The notes under the pieces: model-generated
Told to the model about the DNA's origin: nothing
The model's input: the letters and a program-made list of their open reading frames with translations, nothing else
Databases searched by the model: none
Position numbers and translations under genes: made by a program
In this document: positions 23,729-43,107 of the stretch, piece after piece
Layout: every line of letters starts with the position of its first letter
Position numbering within the stretch: position 1 is the first letter of the stretch
From: an uncultured Gammaproteobacteria bacterium
GTDB taxonomy: Bacteria > Patescibacteriota > Microgenomatia > Levybacterales > UBA12049
Assembly: GCA_964512695.1 (NCBI GenBank)
Contig: CAZEJU010000001.1
Coordinates: 7,803-71,802, forward strand
Reading direction: 5' to 3'
DNA length: 64,000 bases

Positions 23729-23757
23729 TTGACAATAAGCAAAAAGTAGAGTATTAT
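23729..23757 (+). promoter_or_regulatory. sigma70-like promoter TTGACA-N17-TATTAT
   Basis: Read directly from the sequence; 17-nt spacer. Confidence 0.55.
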
Positions 23758-23770
23758 CGGATATAACGAT

Positions 23771-23821
23771 ATGCATTATATAAAAGTTGAAAACATGATG
23801 GCAATGATGATGACTTCCTAA
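23771..23821 (+). promoter_or_regulatory. Met-rich leader peptide ORF (MHYIKVENMMAMMMTS; five Met in the last eight codons)
   Basis: ATG CAT TAT ATA AAA GTT GAA AAC ATG ATG GCA ATG ATG ATG ACT TCC TAA begins ~7 nt after the predicted TSS. Its stop abuts an antiterminator arm, ggaggt at 23823-23828. Confidence 0.55.
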
Positions 23822-23852
23822 CGGAGGTGTATCACGTGCTGTTTGTGAACGA

Positions 23853-23875
23853 CCTCCTTACTAGGAGGTTTTTTT
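23853..23875 (+). terminator. intrinsic terminator CCTCCTtactAGGAGG + T7 (attenuator terminator; 3' arm doubles as SD)
   Basis: Perfect 6-bp GC-rich stem followed by seven T. The upstream ggaggt can alternatively pair with acctcc. Confidence 0.6.
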
Positions 23876-23886
23876 ATTGTAAAAAT

Positions 23887-24684
23887 ATGTTTGTGACCAT
23901 TATTAACGACTGTACAGATCATAACGTAATAGGAAGGCAACTAACCAGAGCAGCTGTCTTATTTTACGCGCCTGTTATTCCGGTTGGGGTTCACAACGAG
24001 TTAGAAGCTGCCGGAAACCTCATAGATGTTCTCGATGCTGCAGAAAAGGGAAAAGGAGTAATCATTCTGAATGTCGCACCCCGACATGGTAACGCGAAAA
24101 AGTGGCCGAATGGAACACCATTTGCGTACTTTAACGTCAATAATATACTTATTATAGCCACAATAGATGGCTACTCCTTGTCTCTTATAAAAAAACTCAG
24201 GATAATAGATTCCGTGAATCTCCTTGATATTCCTGATGTAGTTAACAGGATGCAAGAAGAACATGTCATTTCTTCAGAACTACGAGATCAAATCATTCAT
24301 ACGCAATTTCGAAGTTTCGAGTTCGCTCCCCGCGTAGCAAAGTGGCTGACCGAAAGAATAGAAATCCCCAGCACACCGTATGCTTTATCCCAAGTTCCTG
24401 ATGTACCAAAAGCTATATGGTATATCGATAATTTCGGAAACTGTAAAACCACACTCCTACCAGAAGATGTAAACTTCCAGGCAGGCAAAAAAGTTCATAC
24501 GGAATTAGGTGAGTTAGCTTGCTATAACAGATTAAAAGATGTCCCTGATGGAAAAACAGCTCTTATCATTGGTAGTTCAGGTTATAAAGATAAACGATTT
24601 ATCGAGTTAATAATCCAAGGTAAAAGCGCAGCACAGATATATGGTCTGCAAGTCGGATCATTAATCATAAATACTATTGGTTAA
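23887..24684 (+). CDS. SAM hydroxide adenosyltransferase family protein (DUF62; SalL/FlA fluorinase-chlorinase fold)
   Basis: N-terminal VTIINDCTD..; C-terminal IDNFGNCKTTL... closely parallels the fluorinase motif IDHPFGNVWTNI. Confidence 0.65.
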   Translation: MFVTIINDCTDHNVIGRQLTRAAVLFYAPVIPVGVHNELEAAGNLIDVLDAAEKGKGVIILNVAPRHGNAKKWPNGTPFAYFNVNNILIIATIDGYSLSLIKKLRIIDSVNLLDIPDVVNRMQEEHVISSELRDQIIHTQFRSFEFAPRVAKWLTERIEIPSTPYALSQVPDVPKAIWYIDNFGNCKTTLLPEDVNFQAGKKVHTELGELACYNRLKDVPDGKTALIIGSSGYKDKRFIELIIQGKSAAQIYGLQVGSLIINTIG

Positions 24685-24794
24685 ATTCGACACTACAGAA
24701 ATAACATTTATGGGAATTAAGATTACCATATTAAAAAATAACAGAAAAATACCTCAATGCCTGGACTAAAGGAATCTCGCATTACCGGCTATTA

Positions 24795-24823
24795 TTGACA
24801 AGCTCAGGCTGATAAGGTAAAGT
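24795..24823 (+). promoter_or_regulatory. sigma70-like promoter TTGACA-N17-TAAAGT
   Basis: Read directly from the sequence. Confidence 0.5.
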
Positions 24824-24828
24824 ATGGA

Positions 24829-25107
24829 AAGAATCAAGAGTGATGGGGAGACCCCAGTCTGATCTTCCTTTTCGCCTTAGTAGATTTCTACTTCGGCTTA
24901 AAGAGCGATCTTACCGGGGCGGGAGTTTTGGCTTCATGATCCATCCGGCAACCCTTCGGTAAGTTCAAACAATGCTTGAACAACGAGCAGGGTGCCAAAC
25001 CCAACCCAAGAGATGTGCTACCGAGTACATCTTCGTAAAGGAGGATTTGATCCTGAGACAATCGAAGGATAAACTATGTATTACCTCTCTTTACGAGAGG
25101 TTTTTTT
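24829..25107 (+). ncRNA. SAM-I (S-box) riboswitch with enlarged P3 and terminator expression platform
   Basis: Conserved S-box blocks AUCAAGAG (24833-40), CCGGCAACC (24945-53), GGUGCCAA (24981-88) and AGAGAUG. The P1 3' strand AAGAGA can alternatively pair with the UCUCUU 5' arm of the terminator 25084-25107. Confidence 0.6.
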
Positions 25108-25113
25108 ATTTAT

Positions 25114-26868
25114 ATGGCTAAAGAAGGTGAAATAAAAGGCACATATCAGTTTAGTATAGATGGCCCTCAGCTGACCAGTGACGATATACAGAGGAAGTTC
25201 CCTGGTGTCAAAAATAATGGTCATCTCGGAAAGACTGGTGTAGTACTACATGATACAGCAATTCCTATCGCAGCTATCCGACATCCTCGACTTATACCTA
25301 CGCGGTTAGATGGAATTATACCTGTGTTTGGTGGCCCCCAAACACACAGTAAAATAGAGCATATCCGTATCCGACCAGCTGGTGGCTCAGAAGCGAAAAG
25401 AATAGCAAAAGCAGTCCGTGGAACAACCCCAACACTCGGACCAGAAGCAGAAGCATTTGTACATAACAGAAGAACAGGCAGACTTGTACCTACATTTAAA
25501 GGAAAACAAATTGAAACACAAAAAGCACTGAGAGAAGATGCACTTGGACATACGGGATCGCTTGAAGAACACATCGTAGCATCTGCTAAATTTACAGTTT
25601 TTAGAGCTAATCAAGAGCGCAGACGAGGACGTATCGCAGTTGAAACAAGTGTTCCTATAACCTATGGTGAAGGTAAAGATGCTCGAGATAGTGAAGGTCT
25701 CGCAGGTAGTGAAAATCCATATATTGTGGCTATGACACATCTGTTCCCTGAAAATATGCTCCCTACAGAGAAGCTTGATCCACAAGTTGCAAGCGTTTTA
25801 AATCAATACGCTCTTCGCCATGGGTTTGCGACTATTTCTGATATGACCAGCGCTCTCGGTCTTAACCGCACCTGGCACATGGCTGCAAGCCATCTGAGTC
25901 TTGGTCTACCGCAGGAACAACAACCAGATGGGAAATATATTACTTCTACTGAGATCGCGATAGGAGTTATGAATGTATTTATGAGTGACCTTAATATTTC
26001 GCATATGTTTACTCATGGAACACCTATGCTAGGCGGACAATTAGTAGATGTTCCAGCACGAAATCGTCAATCAGAACATGTGGCCTCAAATCAACCGTTA
26101 CGGGATGTACGACTTGGTGCATTTAAGCATATGTTAGGCACTGCTTATCCTGGCCCGCTTATCGCGAATGAAGAAGATCTCTATGATCGCTGGAGAAAGA
26201 TTGTTATTCCAGGGAAAGCCGCGACTGTAGATCGAGCATCGGCAATTAGTATAGCACCAAATGGAGAAATCTATGCCTCAATGCATGCACGGGCTCGTCT
26301 TCGTGTGGGAGGTGATCCCACAAAACAAACTGTACGAGTCGAATCAGTAGGAGATAGCGCTACACCTTCACGCTACGACTTAATAGCGCGTGACGCGTAT
26401 CTAGTAATGTTATGGAACGGTGCTATGGAGGCAATGGCAAAAGGAAAAACCCCACAAGATTTCTGGGGGGGAAATTATCCAGCAATAACTGACTGGAAAA
26501 AGCAGCAGGAAGCGACATTAGGATTTTCTGTTAATGGACCAGCGAATAGGGAAGCACATGTGCTGATTGAACAAAACCTGGGGTTTTTACGTGATATGAA
26601 AGCTCTCCAACCTACATTAGGTACGTACATCGATTATGTAACAGCACGTATTCGTAATTTTAGTAGACCGACAAAAGCACACACACTCGATGAGTATACA
26701 ACAGATCCATCAGGTAGCATAAGCGAGGTAATTCGACGCATGAAAGAAACCGGATATAAAGATGATGAAATCGTGCGAGCTATTGACACACATCAAACTG
26801 CAGTATCACGAAGAGTTGTTCAAGTTCATGGAGATTTTAAAGCGCTTCTACAAGATGTACAAAAGTAA
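25114..26868 (+). CDS. hypothetical 584-aa protein under SAM-riboswitch control
   Basis: Long ORF with coding-like composition and no recognisable motif. Confidence 0.4.
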   Translation: MAKEGEIKGTYQFSIDGPQLTSDDIQRKFPGVKNNGHLGKTGVVLHDTAIPIAAIRHPRLIPTRLDGIIPVFGGPQTHSKIEHIRIRPAGGSEAKRIAKAVRGTTPTLGPEAEAFVHNRRTGRLVPTFKGKQIETQKALREDALGHTGSLEEHIVASAKFTVFRANQERRRGRIAVETSVPITYGEGKDARDSEGLAGSENPYIVAMTHLFPENMLPTEKLDPQVASVLNQYALRHGFATISDMTSALGLNRTWHMAASHLSLGLPQEQQPDGKYITSTEIAIGVMNVFMSDLNISHMFTHGTPMLGGQLVDVPARNRQSEHVASNQPLRDVRLGAFKHMLGTAYPGPLIANEEDLYDRWRKIVIPGKAATVDRASAISIAPNGEIYASMHARARLRVGGDPTKQTVRVESVGDSATPSRYDLIARDAYLVMLWNGAMEAMAKGKTPQDFWGGNYPAITDWKKQQEATLGFSVNGPANREAHVLIEQNLGFLRDMKALQPTLGTYIDYVTARIRNFSRPTKAHTLDEYTTDPSGSISEVIRRMKETGYKDDEIVRAIDTHQTAVSRRVVQVHGDFKALLQDVQK

Positions 26869-27021: not shown

Positions 27022-28503
27022 ATGTCCCGAATACACGAATTACCAAGTATCCATACACTCTCTTCTACTGATGCTCAAAGATATTGGGATAAGTTACATC
27101 CAATAAAAGTTGTATCTCATGAGAGACCCCTGCAATACGGACATCCAGTTGAAATTCCTCCTAAACTCGCAGGAACTATTGGCAGATCAGCAAATCTCAT
27201 GGAAGAAATTGCGATAGATAGCATTATGCAACAAGGGGCCACTACATGGCTTGGAAATAATGCGGCTTCTTTCGCAGGTGATAGTCTTAACATACAAGAA
27301 ATCAACCACCAGCTCGAAGGTAGGCTTCTTCAAGGCTATCGATTACCTATTAGTTACGATGGAATGATAACAGTCTTTCGTGGAAGACCACATTATACAG
27401 TAGTGGAAGCACAATCTCTAGTTGCTCATGGCCCATGGATTCGGTCTATGCTTCAAGCAGCAGATAAAGATCCAGATGATCCATCATCATGGCAAGGGAA
27501 AGAAAATCCTACCCTCGTAGTTCAACAAATGAAAGACAATTTCGCGAAGGGTGAAGTTATAACAGTATTAGATACCACTCCACTTTCAGGTCCATTTATT
27601 CATGAACAAGTGGGTCTAGCGAAAGCATTAGGAACATCGGGAAGCGTGCCTATTTCTGCGCTTGATATCCAATTTAATCCTGAAATAGGTTATTTTCATT
27701 ACGGTTATGCAGTTGATACTAGAGGCTACCCTATACCAAATGGAAACGGCTTTTTAAGAACATCCGACCGAATACCAATCCGGCATGTGTTAAGCCGTAT
27801 GACGCAACCTGATCTGGATCATTTATACAATCTGGTCCGCGGTAACCCCCAACAAAGTGAACTTATACTCAAGTTCTTACGAGATGAAAAGATTAATTGG
27901 ATCTGGCATCCAGCATGGCAGTCCCTCATCGATAAATCGAGATTACCATATATCTGTAAAAAACTGGAAGAAAGACAAGAAAACGTAACACGCAATCAAT
28001 TTGTTCCGATTTTCGTAGCCGGTGAAACTCCACCCCTAGGAACGTATGTGCGTAAACCCGTAAGCAGCGTCCAAGGTGAAGGAGTAACAATTGTGCAAGT
28101 TAATGGCGTACCTCAACAAGTCGAAGAAGGCACAGTATACCAAAAGTATTTTTACCCGTATCCGTTTTCCATTCCCTTAGACGCAGAAATAGCACGGCAA
28201 TTTCCTGTAACACCCCATGCTCCCAGAAATGTCGCGTCTGGCTTCCAGGAACATTTCGGTTGGGGACAAACCACAACGCCTGCTAGTCTAGAATTATGTT
28301 ATATGGTGCCACCTTGGTGTAAAGGAGAACTTACGGGATATTTTATAGGGAGAGTAGCACCCAGGTATACAGGACCAGATTCAAGAAACATAACCCAAAC
28401 AAACCTCTCAAAAGCGCAAGCTGCGATGTACGAATATATCCGAGATCAGGATCATTGGAAAACACCCTTCGGCTTTTCCCCTGTAACTCTTCAAAAGACT
28501 TAA
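27022..28503 (+). CDS. hypothetical 493-aa protein
   Basis: Long ORF preceded by a TTGACA promoter and a Ser-rich 18-codon uORF at 26929-26985. Confidence 0.4.
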   Translation: MSRIHELPSIHTLSSTDAQRYWDKLHPIKVVSHERPLQYGHPVEIPPKLAGTIGRSANLMEEIAIDSIMQQGATTWLGNNAASFAGDSLNIQEINHQLEGRLLQGYRLPISYDGMITVFRGRPHYTVVEAQSLVAHGPWIRSMLQAADKDPDDPSSWQGKENPTLVVQQMKDNFAKGEVITVLDTTPLSGPFIHEQVGLAKALGTSGSVPISALDIQFNPEIGYFHYGYAVDTRGYPIPNGNGFLRTSDRIPIRHVLSRMTQPDLDHLYNLVRGNPQQSELILKFLRDEKINWIWHPAWQSLIDKSRLPYICKKLEERQENVTRNQFVPIFVAGETPPLGTYVRKPVSSVQGEGVTIVQVNGVPQQVEEGTVYQKYFYPYPFSIPLDAEIARQFPVTPHAPRNVASGFQEHFGWGQTTTPASLELCYMVPPWCKGELTGYFIGRVAPRYTGPDSRNITQTNLSKAQAAMYEYIRDQDHWKTPFGFSPVTLQKT

Positions 28504-28528: not shown

Positions 28529-28557
28529 TTGACAATTTATAATTGATCTGGTAAGAT
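28529..28557 (+). promoter_or_regulatory. sigma70-like promoter TTGACA-N17-TAAGAT
   Basis: Read directly from the sequence. Confidence 0.55.
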
Positions 28558-28569
28558 TATAAGACAAAT

Positions 28570-28620
28570 ATGCAACATACGTTTAATTCTATTATTGTCG
28601 TCCTTCTCGTTACCCATTAA
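28570..28620 (+). promoter_or_regulatory. branched-chain-amino-acid-rich leader peptide ORF (MQHTFNSIIVVLLVTH)
   Basis: ATG CAA CAT ACG TTT AAT TCT ATT ATT GTC GTC CTT CTC GTT ACC CAT TAA. Seven consecutive Ile/Val/Leu codons; near-leaderless. Confidence 0.55.
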
Positions 28621-28650
28621 TTGGGCGGAGGACTCGTGTTAAAAAACGTA

Positions 28651-28675
28651 CCCGCTCAAAGAAGCGGGTTTTTTT
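28651..28675 (+). terminator. intrinsic terminator CCCGCTcaaagaAGCGGG + T7
   Basis: Followed by the tiny ORF ATG TTT TAA, then the AAGGAG SD and the main ATG at 28697. Confidence 0.6.
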
Positions 28676-28696
28676 ATGTTTTAAAAGGAGAAATAT

Positions 28697-30556
28697 ATGA
28701 GTTCACATAAAGAATATGCAGGGCAAGCTGCTCTCAAATCCTTAGCTGAAAGATATATTAGAAGGTATGGCTTAAAAGCTGATTTTAATCCCGAAGAGAC
28801 AGGTGGAGTAATTTTCGCTCAAGACGGTACACCACTAAGGCAAGTCCGTGCTCCTTTCTGGAGAGCAGAAAAAGGTGCAAAGGGAACAGGCAGAAAAGAT
28901 ATGCCTAGAGTTTACACTGCTACAAATCCTGACCCGGATAAACCTAACTCAGGATTAGAATTAGAATTCCAAGCTTTCCATGCCATGACAGGAGAAATGG
29001 AACCAGTCATGGATGCAGACCACCCAGTACATCAGGGGTTATTGGAACACAATCGAAAAGCAAAAAATGGACACACTGAAAATAATGGAAATGGACTTGG
29101 AAACGGAAATGGGGTTAATGGATATGTTTTTGTAGAAGACGGCGCTGACTGGGACCATGACTTCCCAACTGGACCTAAAGAAGTAGGATTTAGCCCAGAG
29201 CTAACACGTCATACTTTGGAGGAAAACTTTCCTCCGAATGTAGATTCCGGAACACGAAACAGAGAGACATTATATGGTATTAGCACAGTTGTACAATTAG
29301 CAGAAGCAAATAACACACTTATCTCTCCGTTCTCGACTATACCGCATCGAGATATTACACAAATTGATACGAATCAACATCCATATGTCCAACGCATAGC
29401 GTTCGAACACATGGGTCCCGAAAAAGTTAAACACTTTACAGGTACTTCACTGCAAATTCACGTAGAAATCAAGGATTTAGAGTCAGCTTTACACGCTGCA
29501 AACCGTTGGCAGCTAGTTACACCTATTATGTATGCGGGAACACTTTCAGCACCTTTTATCGCAGGAGAAATAACACCCGATTTACAAGAACGGTATGGTC
29601 AAGTTCCCGACGTGGTTGGCGATCCACTAAAAGAAAGCACATTTGATACTATGACACAAGGACCCCATGAATCATATAGATATTATGGTAGATTAATAGG
29701 ATCACCTTCTGGAGGTGCAATGAGACAGCCTCTACCTGAAACATCTGAAGAATTTTGGTCTGCGGCTAATAATCTTCTAAAATCAGGAGAAAGTCCTTCC
29801 GTGGGTAGAGTAGCAGGACACCATGCAGATTTTCGTATTCGCCCTGACTTGGGACCGTATGGCACAATCGAGTTAGCAGTATTAGATACTGCCGGTGCGC
29901 GCATTCCAAATATCGTAGCCATTCAAGAATTCTCCAGAGCTTTGGGTTGGAAGTTACAGAGACAAGCAGGTAATTGGGAACAAATTATGGAAGATCCTCG
30001 TTTTAAATCGATATTCGGGCAAGCACCTTCTAAGGAAACATTCGAGACTGTTCACTGGAATACTATAGAGGTAGCAAAACATGGAAATAAGGCAATGATT
30101 ACTGGTATGGACGGAGAACAGCATTCTATAGCAGAGTTATGGAGTAAGTTAGTGGAATATGTACAAGAACCTATTGAAGAAACCGGTTATACTGGTTTAC
30201 CGGAAGGTATTATCGAGGTATTAGATAAAGCTTATCAAGACCCATCAGAACTATTTGATGTTTATAAAGACGAAAAAGGAGTTACTTCTGTCAAAGGATT
30301 CTATGAAACCGGAGTCGGAACTATGAGCCAGTGGGCCAGACAACGTGCAGAAGAGTTGAAAGCAAGAGGCTTAGCAGAAAAAGAAGCCATTATCGATACT
30401 ACACTTAATGTAGGCAAAAGCTTTCATGAACATGTAAAGTCAATGACACCCAAAGATCTTAATACTTTATATGTAAGCGCTAACAAGGATGTGGATAAAT
30501 CACCCCAATACAGCGCTAATGGTCAGAATCCATCATACCAAACCACTGCGTCCTAA
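28697..30556 (+). CDS. GCS2/YbdK-like carboxylate-amine ligase family protein
   Basis: Motif order parallels E. coli YbdK: GLELEFQAF; SLQIHVEI (GQHVHVG-like); HHADFRIRPDLGPYGTIELAVLDT (HWDIRP..GTVEVRVMDT-like). Confidence 0.5.
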   Translation: MSSHKEYAGQAALKSLAERYIRRYGLKADFNPEETGGVIFAQDGTPLRQVRAPFWRAEKGAKGTGRKDMPRVYTATNPDPDKPNSGLELEFQAFHAMTGEMEPVMDADHPVHQGLLEHNRKAKNGHTENNGNGLGNGNGVNGYVFVEDGADWDHDFPTGPKEVGFSPELTRHTLEENFPPNVDSGTRNRETLYGISTVVQLAEANNTLISPFSTIPHRDITQIDTNQHPYVQRIAFEHMGPEKVKHFTGTSLQIHVEIKDLESALHAANRWQLVTPIMYAGTLSAPFIAGEITPDLQERYGQVPDVVGDPLKESTFDTMTQGPHESYRYYGRLIGSPSGGAMRQPLPETSEEFWSAANNLLKSGESPSVGRVAGHHADFRIRPDLGPYGTIELAVLDTAGARIPNIVAIQEFSRALGWKLQRQAGNWEQIMEDPRFKSIFGQAPSKETFETVHWNTIEVAKHGNKAMITGMDGEQHSIAELWSKLVEYVQEPIEETGYTGLPEGIIEVLDKAYQDPSELFDVYKDEKGVTSVKGFYETGVGTMSQWARQRAEELKARGLAEKEAIIDTTLNVGKSFHEHVKSMTPKDLNTLYVSANKDVDKSPQYSANGQNPSYQTTAS

Positions 30557-30590
30557 CAAGTATCAACTATTGTTGTGATACAATAACAAC

Positions 30591-31676
30591 ATGATTCAAC
30601 AAGAAAGGCTTCTAAAAACATTCTTCGATCTTGTTTCAATCGATAGTCCTACAGGTGAAGAAGAACGCATTCGTAACGAACTCTCAAATCGTTTGAAAAA
30701 ACTTGGCGCTGAAACAGTGGAAAAAGATACCTATGGTAACCTCATAGCGAAATTCCATGGTGAAGGTGAACCGCTCATGATTAACTGCCATATGGACACT
30801 GTAGAGCCCGGTAGAGGCATAGTACCAATTATGAAAGGTGATAGAGTAGAAACCGACGGGAAGACAATTCTAGCGGGTGATGCAAAGGCAGGTTTAGCGA
30901 TTATCCTCGAAGCCTTAACTTCACTAAAAGAAGAAAATAAAAAACATGTACCTATCGAAATCGTCTTTACTGTAGAGGAGGAAACTGGACTTTATGGAGC
31001 TGTTAACCTCGACTATTCAAAAGTCTCCGCAAAAAAAGGATTTGTTTTTGATGGTTCAAAAGATCCTTGTACCTTAACCACATCAGCACCGGGATATTAT
31101 AGAGTCGATGTTACAATCATAGGAAGAGCGGCTCATGCGGGAGCCGAACCTGAAAAAGGTATTTCAGCTATTAAAATCGCTTCTGATATTATTACGAAGC
31201 TCGAGGTAGGCAGAATTGATGAAGAAACTACGGCAAACGTCGGTATTATAGAAGGCGGAAGCGCCCGGAATGCAGTACCAGAAAAAGCACATTTTAAGGC
31301 AGAAATTCGAAGTAGAAAGCTAGAAAAGCTTGAAAAACATGCAGGTCATTTCCAAGAAGTTTTTGAGGAAGCGATGAAGAAACATCCTGAAGCGAAAATA
31401 GAGATAGACATGCATTTAGAATTTAATCCATATATTTTCGATGAAAACCATCATGTTATTCAGCTTGCGAGTAAAGCGTTAAGCGAACTAGGACAAACAC
31501 CGAAACTTGCACCTTCGAATGGAGGATCCGATGTCAATATTTTTATTTCACACGATATAGAAACAGTGGCTGTAGGAATTGGCGATTATAATGCTCATAC
31601 AACCCGCGAATACGTCGTCATATCTGAAATAGTGTTAGGAGCTAGACTCTGCGAAAAACTCCTTGAGGCGAAGTAA
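30591..31676 (+). CDS. M20 family peptidase, peptidase T (PepT)-like
   Basis: LLKTFFDLVSIDSPTGEE; metal-binding HMDTV, GAVN/DGS region and E-rich catalytic region. Paralog of 39896. Confidence 0.7.
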   Translation: MIQQERLLKTFFDLVSIDSPTGEEERIRNELSNRLKKLGAETVEKDTYGNLIAKFHGEGEPLMINCHMDTVEPGRGIVPIMKGDRVETDGKTILAGDAKAGLAIILEALTSLKEENKKHVPIEIVFTVEEETGLYGAVNLDYSKVSAKKGFVFDGSKDPCTLTTSAPGYYRVDVTIIGRAAHAGAEPEKGISAIKIASDIITKLEVGRIDEETTANVGIIEGGSARNAVPEKAHFKAEIRSRKLEKLEKHAGHFQEVFEEAMKKHPEAKIEIDMHLEFNPYIFDENHHVIQLASKALSELGQTPKLAPSNGGSDVNIFISHDIETVAVGIGDYNAHTTREYVVISEIVLGARLCEKLLEAK

Positions 31677-31759: not shown

Positions 31760-31788
31760 TTGACACGTCATTAACCTCATGGTAGAAT
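31760..31788 (+). promoter_or_regulatory. sigma70 promoter TTGACA-N17-TAGAAT
   Basis: Read directly from the sequence. Confidence 0.6.
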
Positions 31789-31794
31789 TACTAT

Positions 31795-32108
31795 AACATA
31801 CGAATAACAGCGTTGATCCAGTATGGATGGGACTGGGGATTCTCCTTCATTAAAGTTACGCAAGGAGAGCGCTGGGTCTAATCAACCCCGGAGGCGAAAC
31901 CGTAAAAAGATCAGCAACATGTGTCATAGCTGCAGATAAGCACTGATTAAAAGCTGATTCTCGCTGATATAGAGCATGTCATGAATGAGAAGTCCTCCCA
32001 CGCCAAAGCTCCGGAGGATAAAACAAGGTGGCACCGTCCTTAAATAAACGTGGGACCCTTGTAAATAACTACAAAGTAATTTTGTGGTTGTTTACAAGGG
32101 TTTTTTTA
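31795..32108 (+). ncRNA. T-box riboswitch leader (antiterminator AAGG-UGGCACC-GUCC; terminator + T7)
   Basis: AAGGUGGCACCGUCC (~32026-32040) matches the T-box consensus AGGGUGGNACCGCG, including the 7-nt UGGNACC bulge. The 3' strand GGACCCUUG overlaps the 5' arm of the terminator 32057-32108. A candidate Stem I spans GUUGAUC...GAUCAGCAAC. Confidence 0.5.
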
Positions 32109-32120
32109 ATGGTAAAAACT

Positions 32121-33278: not shown

Positions 33279-33307
33279 TTGACATTACACATGGGCTATC
33301 CTATAAT
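33279..33307 (+). promoter_or_regulatory. consensus sigma70 promoter TTGACA-N17-TATAAT
   Basis: Read directly from the sequence. Confidence 0.65.
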
Positions 33308-33314
33308 CATTTAT

Positions 33315-33371: not shown

Positions 33372-33398
33372 TTTCGTGATCACACGAAATACTCTATA

Positions 33399-33422
33399 CC
33401 CCGCATAAGGCGGGGTTTTTTT
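33399..33422 (+). terminator. intrinsic terminator CCCCGCataagGCGGGG + T7
   Basis: Directly followed by the ATG of the tiny ORF MEEFYGND, then the main start at 33436. Confidence 0.6.
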
Positions 33423-33435
33423 ATGGAGGAATTCT

Positions 33436-35136: not shown

Positions 35137-35139
35137 GCT

Positions 35140-37163: not shown

Positions 37164-37192
37164 TTGACGAACTGTATGACTCATGGTATATT
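37164..37192 (+). promoter_or_regulatory. sigma70-like promoter TTGACG-N17-TATATT
   Basis: Read directly from the sequence. Confidence 0.55.
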
Positions 37193-37202
37193 GCTCAAAT
37201 AT

Positions 37203-37247
37203 ATGAAATCCACTTTTTTAGTTTGTTGTGTTACAACTCTGCTTTAA
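37203..37247 (+). promoter_or_regulatory. leader peptide ORF MKSTFLVCCVTTLL (tandem Cys-Cys, Thr-Thr, Leu-Leu)
   Basis: ATG AAA TCC ACT TTT TTA GTT TGT TGT GTT ACA ACT CTG CTT TAA. Its stop abuts GGGG of the antiterminator, which pairs with CCCC of the terminator. Confidence 0.45.
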
Positions 37248-37274
37248 GGGGTTGTAGTTATCGTGGAATATGCA

Positions 37275-37296
37275 CCCCGCCAAGCGGGGTTTTTTT
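37275..37296 (+). terminator. intrinsic terminator CCCCGCcaaGCGGGG + T7 directly abutting the start codon
   Basis: 6-bp GC stem, 3-nt loop, 7 T, then ATG at 37297. Confidence 0.6.
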
Positions 37297-38289
37297 ATGA
37301 GAAACTTATTAGAATTAGGAATTTTCGAAACATACGGAAATGGTGGAGGAGCAATTACCAAAGATAGAGTATCTCCTCCTATTTATCCAGTAGATGCTAA
37401 TTTAGGTGAATGGAGGATACTAGCAACTGATCATGAAAGAGAATTCCCGGGCGAGCATCTCGAACGTGCTTTTGAAGTGATAAAGCAATGGCAGGAAGTA
37501 TTTCCTCGGGAAGATACCTGGATTAATCGTGCGTATGGTATTCCGTCACCGATTATTAAACTCGATGCAACAATTACTAATAATGAATTACAGGTGTATG
37601 AAGTAGAAGATAGACCAGCAGGAATGGGTTATAGCGAATTAATAAATCCTGACTTACGAACAAATTTTGCTGATATTGTATCTACTTGGCCAGATTTCCG
37701 AGTCGTCGTTTCTCCTCAAAGATCTGGAAATGACGATCATTTATGGGCAAAGCCAGCAGAAGCAGATTGGCATGGTCTAGTTCTCGTCCGGGCAGAACCG
37801 TCTGAAGAAGAATTCCATGCATTACAGCGAAGATCCATAAGTACTCTGCTTACAGAAGGAGACAAATCGTATGGTGAAAAAATGGGTTTATGGAAAAGAG
37901 TTCATACAGCAGATGAGATAGATTTTTCACAAGGTTTTGTCGTCAAGCCCACCCAAGGAAGCAAAGGGAATGGTGTGTATGTATCTTTACCGAAACAATA
38001 CATGAAAGAACATGGGATCGACCCAGGTAGAAATGGCGTAGCTACTGCAGGGAAAATACGAGGTGTAATCGATACTGCAGCAGCAAATGGAGGAGTCTTC
38101 GTACAACAATATCATCCTCCTATGGAAACAGGTATCCCGACCCATCCCTGGGCAGTAAACCGGTTATTCTTCGGGTATGATATGCAAAATGGAGAATGGA
38201 GATATATAGGGGGAACATGGAATGCTCGAAATAATTTGAAAATTCATGGAGCTAGTGATACATTAACTGGCCCGTTAAAAACGGTATAA
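37297..38289 (+). CDS. ATP-grasp-like protein
   Basis: FVVKPTQGSKGNGVYVS and ELQVYEVEDRPAGMG motifs, though in an unusual order. Start placed after the terminator T-run. Confidence 0.35.
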   Translation: MRNLLELGIFETYGNGGGAITKDRVSPPIYPVDANLGEWRILATDHEREFPGEHLERAFEVIKQWQEVFPREDTWINRAYGIPSPIIKLDATITNNELQVYEVEDRPAGMGYSELINPDLRTNFADIVSTWPDFRVVVSPQRSGNDDHLWAKPAEADWHGLVLVRAEPSEEEFHALQRRSISTLLTEGDKSYGEKMGLWKRVHTADEIDFSQGFVVKPTQGSKGNGVYVSLPKQYMKEHGIDPGRNGVATAGKIRGVIDTAAANGGVFVQQYHPPMETGIPTHPWAVNRLFFGYDMQNGEWRYIGGTWNARNNLKIHGASDTLTGPLKTV

Positions 38290-38346: not shown

Positions 38347-38376
38347 TTGACGTCCAAATAGATATAACTCTATAAT
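38347..38376 (+). promoter_or_regulatory. sigma70-like promoter TTGACG-N18-TATAAT
   Basis: Read directly from the sequence. Confidence 0.55.
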
Positions 38377-38390
38377 ACAAAGTGTTCTAT

Positions 38391-38438
38391 ATGAATATCA
38401 TGAATAACAATGGAGCAGTAAAGAAGAACCTCTCGTAA
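38391..38438 (+). promoter_or_regulatory. Asn-rich leader peptide ORF (MNIMNNNGAVKKNLS; 5 Asn, including NNN)
   Basis: ATG AAT ATC ATG AAT AAC AAT GGA GCA GTA AAG AAG AAC CTC TCG TAA. The 3' end overlaps the hairpin CCUCUCguaaGAGGGG, whose 3' arm can pair with the CCCCUUAC of the terminator. Confidence 0.55.
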
Positions 38439-38469
38439 GAGGGGTCTTTCTGTTGTCTGCACAATAGTA

Positions 38470-38492
38470 CCCCTTACAGAAGGGGTTTTTTT
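38470..38492 (+). terminator. intrinsic terminator CCCCTTacagAAGGGG + T7
   Basis: Followed by the tiny ORF MDFLLNQ (38493-38516), then a ~100-nt spacer carrying a GGAGG SD before the 38616 start. Confidence 0.6.
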
Positions 38493-38615
38493 ATGGATTT
38501 TTTGCTGAACCAATAGTTCTACTTAGAAATCCAAATCCTCCAAAAAGCGCTCTTCGAGCCGCAGTTCAAATGAACTAAAGCGGAAAGGAAGCTTAGGAGG
38601 ACAAAGCTTTACATT

Positions 38616-39899
38616 ATGAAAGAAGGACTAAAAGTATTATCACACTCATCTATAGAGGAATATCTATTCGATACTGATGTCGAAGACCGATATTATATTC
38701 CGTGGCGTGCAGCCGCAGAAGCAGCAGCAAGAATCGAACTAGGACAACAAGTTTTGACAATCCTTCCAAAACGTGAAGCTTTTAACGAATACCTCACCCT
38801 TTTACAAATGAAATTACTGGGAGGAAGAAGTATTCCAACGCTGTTTACACCTGATGAAGATTATCTTATGGATACTGATATTAAAAAATATCTTATGGAT
38901 ACTCTTCGTGGCAGATTTAACAGAAGTACCACTATTCATCCCTATCAAGCAACACCTGAATTTTATGATTGGGCGGGGGAGTTAGAACAGAAAGGCGTTA
39001 AAATTTACGCAGATAGAAAACGCAAAGACTTACGTGACTGGTGGGGACATAAAGGAGCATATCATCGATGGATAGATGATCTCGATACTCCCACTCAATT
39101 TGAAGGATTACATTTACCAATACCTCGAGGATACGTGGCTCAAAACCATGGAGAATTACTTGTAGCGAAAAAACTTCTACCAACTGACACTGTTGTGGCA
39201 AAACCAATTTTCGGAGCTGGTGGATTTCAAATAGAGTTCTTAGACGACGATAATATCGATACATATGAATGGCCTACCGACCCCACAACGGAAAAACCCA
39301 TGCCAGTTGCTGTACAAGAAAGACTAAGAATTGGTCGAGATGAATTCGGCGAACGTGTTTTTTCCTACCAGTTTGAGGGCCCACAACCAATGGGACGATT
39401 AACACGACAAATTATGGATCAGGAAACTGGGAAAGTCTGGAGTGGGAATAGAGTACCAGCAGATGTTACACCTGAGTTTGAACGAAGAGCAAAGGATGTA
39501 GTTCATACTTTAGTCATGAAAACAAAACCAAAAGGAGACGGGGGAGTCGATATAGCAGATGTAGATGGAGAACCAGTAATCATCGAAGTAAACGGAGGAA
39601 GGCCAACTGGCGCACATATGCCGAAACGATTTCAACAAGCCTTCGCGCCTGAAGCTCCACATTTCGTATTTCAGAAAGTAGAACCAAACGGATATTCACC
39701 ATTCGATATTTGGGATAGACTCGAAGGAGGAAACTTGCCTCGCACGAATGAAACTCTAGTATTTCAGCGTGAAAGACAACGCGGGGTTTTTCCATTAGTT
39801 TGGTTACCGAACTCTTGGGGAATGCTTGCAAGCTTCGGAGGATCATTCGAAGAAGCAAATAATCAGTTACTCGCAGCTCGTGATAGAATAGGCGTATGA
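38616..39899 (+). CDS. ATP-grasp ligase family protein
   Basis: VVAKPIFGAGGFQIEF (central domain) and EPVIIEVNGGRPTGAHMP (C-domain E.N.RP motif) in canonical order. Confidence 0.5.
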   Translation: MKEGLKVLSHSSIEEYLFDTDVEDRYYIPWRAAAEAAARIELGQQVLTILPKREAFNEYLTLLQMKLLGGRSIPTLFTPDEDYLMDTDIKKYLMDTLRGRFNRSTTIHPYQATPEFYDWAGELEQKGVKIYADRKRKDLRDWWGHKGAYHRWIDDLDTPTQFEGLHLPIPRGYVAQNHGELLVAKKLLPTDTVVAKPIFGAGGFQIEFLDDDNIDTYEWPTDPTTEKPMPVAVQERLRIGRDEFGERVFSYQFEGPQPMGRLTRQIMDQETGKVWSGNRVPADVTPEFERRAKDVVHTLVMKTKPKGDGGVDIADVDGEPVIIEVNGGRPTGAHMPKRFQQAFAPEAPHFVFQKVEPNGYSPFDIWDRLEGGNLPRTNETLVFQRERQRGVFPLVWLPNSWGMLASFGGSFEEANNQLLAARDRIGV

Positions 39900-40966
39900 C
39901 TGAGAAAAGGGTAGTACAAATATTTTTCGATTTAGTAAAAATTGACAGCCCTTCTGGACATGAAGAGAACGTTTTAGAGTATATAGAAGCATATTGCAAA
40001 AAACTCTCACTAAATACACAGAGGGATTCTTATGGAAACCTCATCGTTAAAAAAGAAGGAGTAGGTGAACCACTACTTCTCTGTTCACATGCCGATACAG
40101 TAGAACCAGGGAAAAATATTCAACCACGAATAGAGAACGGAATTATAAAAAGCGATGGTACGACGATACTTGGTGCTGATAATAAATCGTCTATTGCAGC
40201 GATTCTCGAGGCTGTGAAACAATTAGTTGAAGAAAAAAAACACCATAGGCCTCTAGAGCTTGTGTTTACAAAATCTGAAGAAGTTGCTAGCTGGGGAGCA
40301 GTATATCTGGACTACAAACAACTTCAAGCAAAAGAAGGATATACGATAGATAACGCAAATCCTGTAGGAACAATTGTCTACGCGTCTCCTTTTTACTATC
40401 GTTTCGATATTACAGTATTCGGTAAAGATGCCCATGCTTCAAGACCGCATGAAGGAATTCATGCTTTAAAAATCGCTGCAAGCGCCATTCATAAAATAAA
40501 ACTTGGAAAAATTGATACAAATACACTTGCCAATATCGGCATGATCCAATCAGGCCATGTACGCAACACAATTCCAGGTTCAGTAGTGCTTATGGGAGAA
40601 GTACGAAGCTATTCCGATGAGAAAGCTCAAAGGTACTTAAACAAAATTATTGATACATTTAGAAAAACTGCAGAAAAAACGGGAGGATCTATAACGTACG
40701 AAACGCTGAAAGAAAATGCTGGGTATATATATAAAACAAATGATCCCTTTGTAAAAAAAACGATGCAGATTATGAAAAAGATTGGAGTAGAAACGAACTT
40801 AATTAAAACTCTGGGCTGTGCCGATGCAAATGTGATCCAAGAGCATGGAATTAAAATGCTCGACCTGGGCGACGGCTCACGCAGAGCGCATACACTAAAG
40901 GAGTCAATACCGGTAGCACAGTTACAAAGAGTCGTTGAGCTAGTATTAGCTCTTGCTGGAGCATAA
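39896..40966 (+). CDS. M20 family peptidase, PepT-like (paralog of 30591)
   Basis: VVQIFFDLVKIDSPSGHEE; HADTVEPG metal site. Overlaps the stop of 38616 by 4 nt, so the two are translationally coupled. Confidence 0.7.
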   Translation: MTEKRVVQIFFDLVKIDSPSGHEENVLEYIEAYCKKLSLNTQRDSYGNLIVKKEGVGEPLLLCSHADTVEPGKNIQPRIENGIIKSDGTTILGADNKSSIAAILEAVKQLVEEKKHHRPLELVFTKSEEVASWGAVYLDYKQLQAKEGYTIDNANPVGTIVYASPFYYRFDITVFGKDAHASRPHEGIHALKIAASAIHKIKLGKIDTNTLANIGMIQSGHVRNTIPGSVVLMGEVRSYSDEKAQRYLNKIIDTFRKTAEKTGGSITYETLKENAGYIYKTNDPFVKKTMQIMKKIGVETNLIKTLGCADANVIQEHGIKMLDLGDGSRRAHTLKESIPVAQLQRVVELVLALAGA

Positions 40967-41067
40967 AACCATACACTCTTCACCCTCCCTTTTCGAATTT
41001 ACGTGAACACTTCCCGAGGTTTGAATAGAAACCAACCTCCCAGGTTGGCAACTAGTAATTTGAGGAC

Positions 41068-41097
41068 TTGCTTAAGGGAGCGTTTATGCGATATACT
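41068..41097 (+). promoter_or_regulatory. sigma70-like promoter TTGCTT-N18-TATACT
   Basis: Read directly from the sequence. Confidence 0.45.
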
Positions 41098-41106
41098 TTC
41101 TTCAAC

Positions 41107-41154
41107 ATGAGTAAATCAGTTTTCGGAACTACCACTACAACAACCCTTTCCTAA
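41107..41154 (+). promoter_or_regulatory. Thr-rich leader peptide ORF (MSKSVFGTTTTTTLS; six consecutive Thr codons)
   Basis: ATG AGT AAA TCA GTT TTC GGA ACT ACC ACT ACA ACA ACC CTT TCC TAA. Its stop abuts GGGAGGUUG (41155-63), which pairs with CAACCUCC (41180-87), the 5' arm of the terminator. Confidence 0.6.
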
Positions 41155-41182
41155 GGGAGGTTGGCGTGGTATTATTTAACAA

Positions 41183-41204
41183 CCTCCTTAATAGGAGGTT
41201 TTTT
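41183..41204 (+). terminator. intrinsic terminator CCTCCTtaatAGGAGG + T6
   Basis: Perfect 6-bp stem plus a T-run. A ~118-nt spacer follows before the 41323 start. Confidence 0.55.
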
Positions 41205-41322
41205 ATTGGGGAGAACACGTATCCGTCAGCTGAGGGATACCACGATAGAATCCCATGGATTATTGCATGGAATCCTATCGCCCCGGTGTACGTCAGGACT
41301 GAAAGCTGACCACAAATAACAT

Positions 41323-43107
41323 ATGACAAACGAACAAGAACTAAAAATAGGAGGACAAAAATCAGCGACGAAAGTTGATTTCGCTCATGCTGAGCATCCT
41401 TTAACCCATGCACGTCTTTATGAAGCAGTAGAAGAACGACGTGGTACCGTAGGTCCTGTAGGAGATGTTCCCAGAGCATATATAAGGGACTCTGCAACTG
41501 CGGCAATTATAGTAAGCACACCTTCAAAAGAGGTGGTTGCTGCTGTTCGATCACCTCTATGGATTCCTAGTGGTGTACGAAATGGAAGAGTAGAATTTGG
41601 TGGAAGACCAGATAAAGATCATATCGAATTTTCTTACTTACGTGAAACTGATTGGGAGTATGTAAAAGAATCTGCGAGGAAAAGATTAGACGCACTTAAA
41701 AAAGCCACAAAACTTAACGAATTTGTTGCTGAGCATGGAGGCTATCTCGGTATAGGAACAGAGCCGGAAGCATTTCTCCTTCATGAAGATGGCAGTGTCG
41801 TACAGATAAACGCTGGAGAGTCATTTTTAGGCCAGAGAGAAGACGCTCTGCCACCGATAGCGACACCCAGAGAGTATGCCCGCGCACGAGCGGAACTTAT
41901 TCAAAATCGAAGACAGCAATTACAGGCTGGTCAAATTGCCTTCGACGGCTCAGTTCGACCTACGGGGAAGATGAGCGAAACAAGAATAACCCAAGAAGGT
42001 GATGAAGCAATATATAATGTAGCTATCACGCAAGCGCTCCATACACGATACACCCATTGTGCAGATCCATTAACACGACAAATCATGGATCAGCTTGCTA
42101 AAACAGAAAACTATAGAGATTTTGACGAAATCTATAATCATGCTTCAACGATAACATACTGGGGTCCTCCCTCTGCATCGCATGCAGCTATAGGAATGCA
42201 TCAAAGACGCGAAAATGGGACAACCTTTGTACCAGAATGGGAAGCAGTAGCTCATGCAGATGTCATAAATAGCGATTTCGCAACTGCTGATGAACTACTG
42301 ATGATGTCAACGCCAGTCATATTCGGAGAACAACCTCAAGTTTTACATAAAGGTACATGGAGAAAACCACGCGACTATCGTCATTTTATGCGACATGTCG
42401 TTGACACTACCTATCCAGCACCTTTTGTCGGCTCGCCAGAAGCATTACGAGCAAATGTTACCGACAGTATACTCTCCGGCAGATCGCACACACTTGATAG
42501 ATCTGCATATACTGCAGATGTACATGGTTTATTAGTCCCTAACTATCATGGAAGAGTACGGATTAGACAAAAGGTTGATGTTACTCATAAAGGAGAAATT
42601 AAACAATCATGCCGTATAGAAGAAACAGGATGTTCACAGTCCGCATCTTTACCTGATGAATTGGCAAGAAATGCACTTATGCAGCTTAGAGCTGTTGCTG
42701 TCGACGAAGCCCTCGCAGCAGGTATGCATCCCTCTGAATTCTATAAAGAGAAATATCCGCATATGACAACTTGGCAAAAGCAGCAAGATATCGTACTCCA
42801 TGCAAATCTCTATGGTTTCCGACATCCTTTACCATCTGCTGTGATAATGGAAAATATTAGGCTTGTACGAGATATCGGTAAGAGATATCCTGTACTCGGT
42901 CTTCAAGCCGTACTCGCAGAAACACGCTTGAGAAATTTATTTGATGATCCAGCACGCTCTTTAGAAGTTTATGAACAAAAACCTATTGGTCCATTTAGCG
43001 AAGTTCTCCAGAATGAATTACATAATGGTACTTCACCTGTAGAACTCGCTCAAAAAGTAGCCGCTTACCAGGATACAGTAGCGGAAAAGATATTAAGAGT
43101 TCCATAG
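41323..43107 (+). CDS. GCS2/YbdK-like carboxylate-amine ligase family paralog
   Basis: EPEAFLLHED, SHAAIGMHQ and HGRVRIRQKVDVTHKGEI align with the family motifs, weakly. Lies immediately upstream of thrS. Confidence 0.35.
   Translation: MTNEQELKIGGQKSATKVDFAHAEHPLTHARLYEAVEERRGTVGPVGDVPRAYIRDSATAAIIVSTPSKEVVAAVRSPLWIPSGVRNGRVEFGGRPDKDHIEFSYLRETDWEYVKESARKRLDALKKATKLNEFVAEHGGYLGIGTEPEAFLLHEDGSVVQINAGESFLGQREDALPPIATPREYARARAELIQNRRQQLQAGQIAFDGSVRPTGKMSETRITQEGDEAIYNVAITQALHTRYTHCADPLTRQIMDQLAKTENYRDFDEIYNHASTITYWGPPSASHAAIGMHQRRENGTTFVPEWEAVAHADVINSDFATADELLMMSTPVIFGEQPQVLHKGTWRKPRDYRHFMRHVVDTTYPAPFVGSPEALRANVTDSILSGRSHTLDRSAYTADVHGLLVPNYHGRVRIRQKVDVTHKGEIKQSCRIEETGCSQSASLPDELARNALMQLRAVAVDEALAAGMHPSEFYKEKYPHMTTWQKQQDIVLHANLYGFRHPLPSAVIMENIRLVRDIGKRYPVLGLQAVLAETRLRNLFDDPARSLEVYEQKPIGPFSEVLQNELHNGTSPVELAQKVAAYQDTVAEKILRVP

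Follow-up and report, generated by a model that had tools for sequence, protein, structure and literature searches.

A predicted regulon of amino-acid starvation switches upstream of ATP-dependent ligase genes in Patescibacteria

Why would a bacterium place a separate amino-acid sensor in front of each of several ligase and peptidase genes? This question is raised by a stretch of 64,000 nucleotides (hereafter called the window), which corresponds to positions 7,803 to 71,802 of contig CAZEJU010000001.1 in assembly GCA_964512695.1. The genome is that of a Microgenomates-like member of Patescibacteria, also known as the candidate phyla radiation (CPR). Nine transcription units in the window have the same order of elements: a promoter close to the consensus, a sensor that is nearly leaderless, an intrinsic terminator and then the gene. 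Six sensors are leader-peptide attenuators, two are T-boxes and one is a conserved structured RNA with motifs resembling those of SAM-I (S-adenosylmethionine) riboswitches. Genes in the cluster encode two amidohydrolases, a DUF62-like protein, ThrRS (thrS), TyrRS (tyrS) and roughly nine ATP-dependent amide ligases, which fall into two fold classes. The predicted regulatory logic, in which each unit is an amino-acid-specific switch that is turned on by shortage, is well supported. We also lean towards the view that these starvation switches form a regulon that drives a ligase-centred supply of amino acids, with a chemistry of ligation followed by release.

Units with a common layout

The nine units lie at 23.7-43.1 kb and 55.8-58.9 kb, all on the plus strand, in the places given by an earlier reading of the sequence (the original prediction). 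Scans for promoters, terminators and leaders confirmed the shared layout proposed there. The window has a GC content of 37.8%. Within 23.6-43.2 kb, a consensus scan gave seven plus-strand promoter matches of at least 10/12, whose first hexamers start at 23729, 24795, 28529, 31760, 33279, 37164 and 38347. All seven sit immediately 5′ of a leader.

Terminator-like sites number 27, compared with 14.3 ± 4.3 in shuffled sequences. The eight strongest hairpins with a GC stem and a T run (at 23851, 25083, 28650, 32055, 33398, 37274, 38469 and 41181) are all in 5′ untranslated regions, directly against start codons. A stricter scan found just three plus-strand sites and two weak minus-strand sites elsewhere in the 64 kb. 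Thus, clean intrinsic terminators in the window are essentially reserved for these leaders.

True gene starts are at 23887, 32121 and 37297, of which the first, belonging to the DUF62-like gene, is a revision of the predicted start. No Shine-Dalgarno sequence precedes the genes at 25114, 37297 and 56332, where the start codon directly follows the T run of the terminator (GGTTTTTTTATG), whereas a clear GGAGG occurs before 28697, 33436 and 38616. Given this difference, initiation may be coupled to the terminator or antiterminator state.

Leader-peptide attenuators

The Met unit (23729..24684) has a promoter at 23729-23757, a leader open reading frame (ORF) that reads Met (23771-23821, MHYIKVENMMAMMMTS) and a terminator at 23851-23878, followed by the DUF62-like gene (23887-24684). 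In the Ile/Val/Leu (ILV) unit (28529..31676), the promoter (28529-28557), leader ORF (28570-28620, MQHTFNSIIVVLLVTH) and terminator (28650-28677) precede genes for the GCS2-like protein B (28697-30556) and a PepT-like M20 peptidase (30591-31676). The Phe unit (33279..35136) has a perfect 12/12 promoter (33279-33307), a leader ORF at 33315-33371 (MIRQAVNFFFFFTPLAGR), a terminator at 33398-33424 and a family C ligase gene (33436-35136).

A further unit (37164..38289), perhaps responding to Cys, consists of a promoter (37164-37192), a leader ORF (37203-37247, MKSTFLVCCVTTLL), a terminator (37274-37298) and a gene for an ATP-grasp ligase of the GspS/YgiC type (37297-38289). The Asn unit (38347..40966) carries its promoter at 38347-38376, its leader ORF at 38391-38438 (MNIMNNNGAVKKNLS) and its terminator at 38469-38494, upstream of an ATP-grasp gene (38616-39899) and a second PepT-like M20 gene (39896-40966). 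Finally, the Thr unit (41068..44937) comprises a promoter (41068-41097), a leader ORF (41107-41154, MSKSVFGTTTTTTLS), a terminator (41181-41208), a family A ligase gene (41323-43107) and thrS (43198-44937), with no terminator between the two genes.

In all six cases the leader ATG is 7-14 nt past the -10 box, and so these transcripts are effectively leaderless. We used RNAfold on each leader in three forms: complete, cut before the 3′ arm of the terminator, and masked by a ribosome halted at the stop codon. Each leader can form the alternative pairings 1:2, 2:3 and 3:4. Segment 1 overlaps or closely follows the regulatory codons, and segment 2 can pair with the 5′ arm of the terminator. When translation runs to the stop codon, only the terminator helix is left in the ribosome-masked folds.

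Six leader peptides, each enriched for one amino acid or group, had been proposed. Five of them have clear codon runs, for Met, ILV, Phe, Asn and Thr. The amino acid read by the sixth, at 37203, is ambiguous, with Cys-Cys, Thr-Thr and Leu-Leu pairs. The Phe leader also has a weak match to the Rfam Phe_leader model in a permissive search. We rejected a small ORF at 26930 (MSAANASQYFSHSLTSYS) as an attenuator, as it is associated with neither a terminator nor an alternative structure.

Beyond the Thr and Asn terminators, an extra 110-120 nt separate the terminator from the start codon (41209-41322 and 38495-38615, respectively). By eye, several hairpins are visible in the Thr segment (GTATCCGTCAGCTGAGGGATAC; GAATCCCATGG...CATGGAATCC). 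In several related loci, which we number with the prefix L, tandem attenuators occur before one ligase gene, each with its own leader ORF and terminator (L016, 4758-5000; L009, 9545-9840; L004, 11750-11985; L010, 898-1090). This arrangement suggests dual-input or sharpened control.

T-boxes for Tyr and Trp

At gathering thresholds, Rfam detects only tRNAs in the window, with no T-box or SAM match. The two predicted T-boxes nonetheless have recognizable specifiers and canonical antiterminators. Folding and reading by hand showed a UGGNACC bulge in each, with A1 and A2 helices that overlap the 5′ arm of the terminator. In terms of covariance scores, one is below threshold and the other has no match at all.

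The Tyr T-box unit (55811..58920) contains a promoter (55811-55839), Stems I to III (55853-56072), the GCS2-like gene E (56332-57711) and tyrS (57724-58920). In a permissive Rfam search, positions 55853-56072 match RF00230 (E = 4e-12) with 58.2 bits, against a gathering threshold of 93. The alignment is good across Stem I, and in the specifier region, GAA-U-UAC-G, a Tyr codon (UAC, 55945-55947) is followed by a purine, upstream of tyrS. Because of insertions, the 3′ half is dropped from the Rfam alignment, and was read by hand. Here, helix A1 (CGAGG/CCUUG, 56119-23 / 56234-38), the 7-nt bulge UGGUACC (56124-56130) and helix A2 (ACGGA/UCCGU, 56131-35 / 56229-33, with an insert of about 90 nt) form the antiterminator. 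The terminator, CCGUCC...GGGACGG-U7, ends at 56331, one base 5′ of the ATG.

An additional GC hairpin with a T run (56075-56103, AATCCCTTCATAAGGGATTTTTT) lies between Stem III and the T-box sequence. It has the appearance of a second intrinsic terminator and might provide control in tandem, or it might be no more than a structural insert.

The second T-box unit (31760..33269) has a promoter at 31760-31788, a specifier hairpin at 31818-31836, a terminator at 32055-32108 and a gene for an ATP-grasp protein of the DUF3182 family (32121-33269). Its leader has no Rfam T-box match at E ≤ 10. Matches to psRNA14 and to miRNAs arise from the terminator hairpin, and we rejected them as spurious. Its antiterminator consists of helix A1 (ACAAGG/CCUUGU, 32023-32028 / 32057-62), the bulge UGGCACC (32029-32035) and helix A2 (GUCC/GGAC, 32036-39 / 32053-56). 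The 3′ strand of A1 is sequestered in a 20-bp terminator helix at 32055-32101.

Reading the specifier of this leader on the assumption of a canonical Stem I, along its 3′ side, gave the inconsistent candidates CCG, ACC and AAA, which were dropped in favor of a conserved UGG. Orthologs of the DUF3182 gene on two contigs of another Patescibacteria assembly (L019 and L020) occur behind the same leader. In an alignment of the three leaders, a short 5′ hairpin carries an invariant UGG plus purine in its terminal loop (UGG at 31828-31830 in the window), and the stem of this hairpin covaries (GAUUUGG/CCAAAUC, GAUUCGG/CCGGGUC and CCAG/CUGG).

The bacterial tRNA-Trp discriminator is G73, and the UGGC bulge implies the same discriminator. 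In L020, the DUF3182 gene is followed by genes for an AstE/AspA deacylase, a 338-aa class Ib aminoacyl-tRNA synthetase (aaRS) and a tRNA-binding protein. From its N-terminus, viewed by eye, we take this aaRS to be TrpRS. In L021, a gene of the Trp repressor (TrpR) family is located just upstream of a DUF3182 relative. Based on the conserved UGG, the UGGC bulge and these gene contexts, we assign the 31.8 kb leader as a T-box for Trp with a short Stem I. This predicted assignment is new, and the short Stem I is atypical.

A structured RNA associated with Met and SAM

The remaining unit (24795..26868) has a promoter at 24795-24823, a structured leader of about 260 nt, a terminator at 25083-25109 and a family A ligase gene with a GCS2 fold (25114-26868). 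Its leader had been called a SAM-I riboswitch. This label failed the covariance-model test at any threshold: neither the leader at 24.83-25.08 kb nor its homolog in L011 has a SAM-family match in Rfam at E ≤ 10, and no other Rfam model matches either of them. What is left is resemblance at the level of motifs. By eye, the leader contains AUCAAGAG, CCGGCAACC and GGUGCCAAACCC, and possibly a UUUGG/CCAAA pseudoknot. These features seem to resemble the SAM-I core (AUCAAGAG, CGGCAACC...GGUGCCAA and a pseudoknot between the P2 loop and J3-4), which does not account for a large extra segment. Given the failed scans, we do not file the leader as SAM-I.

The RNA is conserved between the window and L011, whose protein ortholog is 67% identical. 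Two hairpins carry compensatory changes, and a third is cleanly deleted. This pattern indicates that the leader is a real structured RNA. A more distant ortholog in L012 (39% identity) does not have the structured RNA, and is instead preceded by a leader peptide with a Met run (MSYKTTNCMMMQTFLGEACCFIKQ) and a terminator. In L011, a homocysteine S-methyltransferase gene is present 3′ of the ortholog of 25114. The L012 leader and the L011 methyltransferase tie the structured RNA to Met/SAM independently of its motifs. The DUF62-like gene is upstream of this unit in the window, and a C-terminal fragment upstream in L011 looks like part of AhcY (S-adenosylhomocysteine hydrolase).

Sensors follow enzyme clades

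When GTDB species representatives were scanned with the alignment of family A, relatives turned up in Patescibacteria only (MAGs, or metagenome-assembled genomes, of the Microgenomates group and Roizmanbacteria). A metagenome scan added three loci, one of them a duplicate. One DUF3182 relative is labelled Parcubacteria, and all identified relatives are Patescibacteria MAGs.

It had been proposed to check whether the amino acid of the leader tracks the paralog clade. It does so in a neighbor-joining tree of 22 family A and C genes, which were taken from the window and from 15 related loci in Patescibacteria: the type of sensor follows the enzyme clade for ILV, Thr, Met/SAM and Phe. The ILV clade is represented in seven loci (L003, L004, L007, L008, L009, L010 and L014), whose leaders have ILV runs, e.g., MKFRVLSVIILVLLITA and MLLNVLLFIIVLILIAQPFEAEG. 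The Thr clade, in the window and L002, has leaders with Thr runs. The Met/SAM clade consists of the genes in the window and L011, with the structured RNA, and that in L012, with the Met leader peptide. Family C occurs in the window, L003, L005, L006, L007 and L008. Five of these six have a Phe run, and the L007 leader is rich in Phe without a run. Outside the window, the family C orthologs behind a Phe run are those in L001/L008, L003, L005 and L006. A deep outlier, L015, has a Phe run as well (FRFFFF).

The small ORFs and their enriched codons are likewise conserved in related loci (L001-L016), as the original prediction required. Codon runs and terminators are retained 5′ of orthologs in more than 12 loci, at protein identities of 23-80%. 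For example, the leader of the L011 ortholog of protein B (MKQANQAVVVLLITH) keeps an ILV run (VVVLLI) and the same RNA structure, while the rest of the peptide has diverged. The claim that each paralog answers to a different amino acid is therefore backed by the 22-gene comparison, by the exchange of sensors in the Met/SAM clade and by the Trp T-box.

Ligase families

The gene at 25114 was originally described as a 584-aa unknown. It is in fact a GCS2-fold paralog of 41323, and the two make up family A. In an all-against-all BLASTP comparison of the cluster, the only paralog pairs are 25114/41323 (26% identity) and the two M20 genes (37%). Searches of Pfam, NCBIfam and PDB sequences returned no match for family A or for family C (33436). 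An exhaustive HMMER search of 1.84 billion cluster representatives found only 90 relatives of family A. Family C is bridged to family A through the proteins P0025, P0036 and P0078.

The catalytic domain of families A and C matches the GCS2/YbdK (GCL) fold at roughly 11-14% identity. Invariant residues in the family A alignment are GxExE, E, E, H, R, RxR and E. This set seems to resemble the catalytic pattern of the GCS superfamily, and the putative activity is ATP-dependent ligation. Families A and C have helical domains of their own at the N-terminus (about 130 aa) and at the C-terminus. In ten long, distant relatives of family A (about 700-930 aa), Pfam detected no fused domains. This GCS2-fold family without a Pfam model is a new family.

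Protein E (56332) is the only ligase above the cutoff for Pfam GCS2 (PF04107; 29.2 bits against a cutoff of 21). Protein B (28697) matches the YbdK model TIGR02050 below its cutoff (E = 4.5e-6). PDB sequence searches with the B and C proteins gave nothing meaningful, and local comparisons of A with B, D and E by hidden Markov models and single-sequence hhalign were uninformative.

Among the ATP-grasp ligases, 38616 matches Pfam ATP-grasp_3 and 37297 has a GspS-type (GspS/YgiC/Cp1B-like) fold. DUF3182 is known to have an ATP-grasp fold (PMC4431377). A fourth enzyme, protein D, is a 493-aa YgiC/GspS-like acid-amine ligase encoded at 27022..28503 on the plus strand, with no attenuator of its own. 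It matches YgiC in PDB entry 7uk8 (E = 1e-4) and, weakly, GSP_synth. The initial count of four GCS2 and three ATP-grasp paralogs thus becomes five GCS2-fold or GCS2-like proteins, two of them with weak support from hidden Markov models, and four ATP-grasp-type ligases. The three proteins first called ATP-grasp-like are not paralogs by BLASTP, which finds no mutual similarity, and the four ligases belong to unrelated subfamilies.

One arrangement seen in a relative is absent from the window. In L011 (3360-7396), a leader (MNKSFIMHVLLYTH) precedes an operon of three unannotated genes encoding proteins of 312 aa, 518 aa (37% identical to D) and 450 aa, indicating that the content of the cluster is fluid between close relatives.

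Partner genes

Both M20 proteins belong to the PepT-like family TIGR01883 (297.2 and 297.6 bits, with a cutoff of 274.25). In the protein originally read as a DUF62 SAM hydrolase (gene start at 23887), only the C-terminal domain has a match, to Pfam SAM_HAT_C (37.6 bits, cutoff 25.5; 16 bits in NCBIfam). The N-terminal DUF62 domain was not detected with Pfam. All regulated proteins are predicted to be soluble, with no membrane segment predicted in any of them.

Ligase and amidohydrolase genes are repeatedly found together. In the window, an M20 gene accompanies B in the ILV unit and the ATP-grasp gene 38616 in the Asn unit. In related loci, M20 genes are paired with family C (L006 and L007), family A (L014) and a homolog of 37297 (L016). 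An M20 gene is also beside DUF3182 in L019. AstE/AspA occurs with the 37297 homolog in L017/L018, and with DUF3182 and TrpRS in L020. A ligase is combined with the cognate aaRS for Thr and Tyr in the window, where thrS and tyrS are cotranscribed with the ligase, for Thr in L002 and for Trp in L020. The order of an M20 gene followed by the Thr unit is kept in L002.

Possible functions of the regulon

In the mechanism that we prefer, a strong promoter would drive transcription into a sensor, which is a leader peptide that stalls ribosomes, a SAM-I-like RNA or a T-box reading uncharged tRNA. Scarcity of the cognate aminoacyl-tRNA, or of SAM, would let an antiterminator form and RNA polymerase read into the gene. 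This switching is supported by the computational analysis and by conservation. The genes induced encode predicted soluble, ATP-dependent carboxylate-amine ligases with a GCS2/YbdK or ATP-grasp fold. Frequently, they are cotranscribed with a metallo-amidohydrolase (PepT-like M20 in the window, AstE/AspA in relatives), the cognate aaRS or both. Each ligase clade would recognize one amino acid or class of side chain, and the module would make more of that amino acid available for charging tRNA. The most likely chemistry is ligation followed by release. The ligase would spend ATP on joining the amino acid, an amine-bearing precursor or an unusable form to a carboxylate carrier; a gamma-glutamyl group and a peptide C-terminus are candidate carriers. 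The amidohydrolase would then free the usable L-amino acid.

Ligation followed by release has precedents in LysX/LysK, PuuA/PuuD, BtrJ/BtrG and the N-succinyl-amino-acid pathway. DUF62 enzymes convert SAM into Met and adenosine. By analogy, the DUF62-like gene behind the Met leader would be the one unit whose family chemistry directly fits supply. Together with the homocysteine methyltransferase, the M20 and AstE amidohydrolases and the aaRS genes, it supports a supply role for the ligase clades. The enzymes might thereby serve in salvage or storage, each with its cognate substrate.

Several observations weigh against this reading. It is counter-intuitive that an amine-consuming ligase should be induced when that amino acid is scarce, except where it acts on a precursor or an unusable form or works ahead of a hydrolase. 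In the window, there is no hydrolase in the same operon as 25114, 33436, 37297, 41323, 56332 or the DUF3182 gene. The main weakness is that the operons yielded no gene for a racemase, an oxidoreductase or a carrier, although no search was dedicated to carriers. Moreover, B and E are only weakly GCS2-like, leaders of the 37203 type point to no single amino acid and the SAM-I assignment fails in Rfam. Auxotrophy is assumed from the phylum, while the window encodes an aminotransferase and a phosphoenolpyruvate (PEP) carboxylase. A CPR lineage fits a host-dependent auxotroph, but the 64 kb does not itself prove auxotrophy.

On a broader level, we see a substantial, though less than even, chance that Patescibacteria possess an unrecognized and categorically new system of amino-acid acquisition, in which a second set of amino-acid-specific, ATP-dependent ligases parallels the set of aaRSs and works with M20/AstE amidohydrolases. 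Host-derived material would be captured or converted to individual proteinogenic amino acids in this way, with each enzyme under its own sensor based on tRNA or the ribosome. If true, such a system would explain how amino-acid pools are balanced in these "auxotrophs".

Alternatively, the ligases could capture the scarce amino acid itself, spending ATP to trap it in a dipeptide-like conjugate such as gamma-Glu-X. The lowered free pool would pull in more of the amino acid by non-concentrative uptake, and M20/AstE would release it to the co-induced aaRS. The fold match fits this idea, as GCS2/GCL-fold enzymes make bonds between gamma-Glu and amino acids, and so do the operons of ligase, hydrolase and aaRS and the lack of an annotated dedicated amino-acid transporter among the genes examined. 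However, making and breaking the same bond within one operon is a futile cycle unless the two steps are separated in space or time, and the amino acid could leak out again after hydrolysis. We judge capture to be unlikely.

The ligase-fold proteins could also be nucleotide-dependent amidases that act, alongside M20/AstE, to release amino acids from gamma-glutamyl or N-acyl conjugates of the host. Dop, a depupylase with a GS/GCS fold, provides a model, and a hydrolytic role directly suits supply upon starvation, like the DUF62 and M20 partners. Yet, ATP-grasp proteins of the GspS/YgiC/Cp1B-like kind are known as synthetases, and we know of no pools of such amino-acid-specific conjugates. This explanation seems rather improbable.

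We give a little less credence to a third possibility, that the ligases build signals or antimetabolites that contain or mimic amino acids and make the host release them, or that they are unrelated cargo on leaders that serve aaRS control. Such products would be like those of L-amino-acid ligases or of the E-64 type. The organism is presumably an episymbiont, and two of the units do contain a housekeeping aaRS. Furthermore, Cp1B-type ATP-grasp enzymes make N-acyl amino acid natural products (PMC12568646). On the other hand, most units have no aaRS, the operons contain no exporters or tailoring enzymes and it would be costly to secrete a scarce amino acid. The strict tracking of clade and sensor over deep divergence argues for a role in core metabolism.

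Last, short ORFs and hairpins might coincide by chance in AT-rich intergenic DNA, for which one could cite the overall lack of enrichment in promoter-like matches (45, versus 49 in shuffles) and the proposed 26930 leader, but this explanation is effectively refuted by the conservation upstream of orthologs, and the E-value of the Tyr T-box and the near-absence of strong terminators elsewhere also stand against it.

Comparison with known systems

The attenuators resemble those of the thr, ilv, pheA, his and trp operons in Proteobacteria in their cognate codon runs, their 1:2, 2:3 and 3:4 helices and the intrinsic terminator before the first gene. The Thr leader in L002 also mixes Ile with Thr, as does the E. 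coli thr leader. By contrast, the attenuators here occur in Patescibacteria, have essentially leaderless ORFs and include the unusual Asn and Met types. They control single ligases, with or without peptidase or aaRS genes, rather than biosynthetic operons.

The T-boxes share with Firmicutes regulons (for aaRS, transporter and biosynthesis genes) a specifier followed by a purine, a UGGNACC bulge for the NCCA end of the tRNA, the competition between antiterminator and terminator and the presence of a cognate aaRS in the operon (tyrS in the window, TrpRS in L020). They differ in that they score below or outside the Rfam model and that the first gene encodes a GCS2-like or DUF3182 ligase. In addition, the Tyr copy has large insertions and the extra hairpin, and the Trp copy combines its short Stem I with a specifier in a terminal loop.

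As for the enzymes, the LysW pathway (LysX/ArgX with LysK/ArgE) similarly encodes an ATP-grasp ligase together with an M20 amidohydrolase, with attachment and release at the ends of the pathway. It is specific to Lys and Arg, whereas the units here are associated with many amino acids, and several of their ligases have a GCS2 fold. We saw no LysW-like carrier, in a search not dedicated to one, and no gene for a LysW-type modifying enzyme (kinase, reductase or aminotransferase) inside the operons. PuuA/PuuD, PauA1-7 of Pseudomonas and GmaS also feature GS/GCS-superfamily paralogs for individual amines, plus a hydrolase that removes the glutamyl group. However, those systems are catabolic, induced by substrate and controlled by protein regulators, whereas the genes here are predicted to be induced, through RNA sensors, when a proteinogenic amino acid is short. 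Families A and C are set apart from the known YbdK/GCS2 and GspS/YgiC/Cp1B ligases by the low identity (about 11-14%), the extra helical domains and the lack of a Pfam model.

Full-text literature searching found no prior description of this regulon; its coverage was incomplete, and such absence is no proof. The sensors are of known kinds. New details are their occurrence in CPR, their leaderless design and the two variant T-boxes that Rfam misses. For the effector side, namely a GCS2-fold family, ATP-grasp ligases and amidohydrolases for individual amino acids, the same searching found no described counterpart. The ligase modules for individual amino acids suggest an undescribed way in which host-dependent bacteria cope with a shortage of a single amino acid.

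The locus bears on how CPR bacteria, which make up much of bacterial diversity, acquire amino acids and keep them in balance in the absence of biosynthetic pathways. In this regard, the sensors label around ten uncharacterized enzymes with an amino acid (Met, Ile/Val/Leu, Trp, Phe, Asn, Thr, Tyr and others), and the labels are directly testable predictions of substrates. It also provides examples from CPR of classical leader-peptide attenuation and of divergent T-boxes, and the enzyme clade that is wired to two types of sensor is a natural experiment in regulatory evolution.

Other genes in the window

The sole match of a 467-aa protein encoded at 8122-9525 is a weak one (E = 0.002), to the ATP-grasp C-terminal domain GARS_C. 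This protein may represent a further divergent ligase, and its gene has no evident leader or terminator in front of it.

Just upstream of the cluster, at 20153-23063, are genes for a class I/II aminotransferase and an archaeal-type PEP carboxylase (PEPcase_2), which point to some metabolism linked to oxaloacetate or aspartate in a supposedly auxotrophic lineage. These two genes are separated by a 124-nt spacer with a GC content of 10% (21431-21554).

Four proteins without a Pfam match (526, 446, 280 and 194 aa) flank the cluster or lie inside it. Their genes are on the minus strand, at 52711-55760, 35140-35982 and 23074-23658, and that for the 446-aa protein is divergent from the promoter of the Tyr T-box. 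Eight tRNA genes (Gln, Gly, Phe, two Val and three Leu) occur at 10720-18393 and 36100-36174, and the second tRNA-Val lies midway through the ligase cluster, on the opposite strand. Finally, the unannotated region 36950-37160, directly 5′ of the promoter at 37164, appears to encode a small hydrophobic protein (...GGIAWGLGASVGVSILFTILGFIATQANLVPYIGTFVSQIIDFVLKHNKHF).

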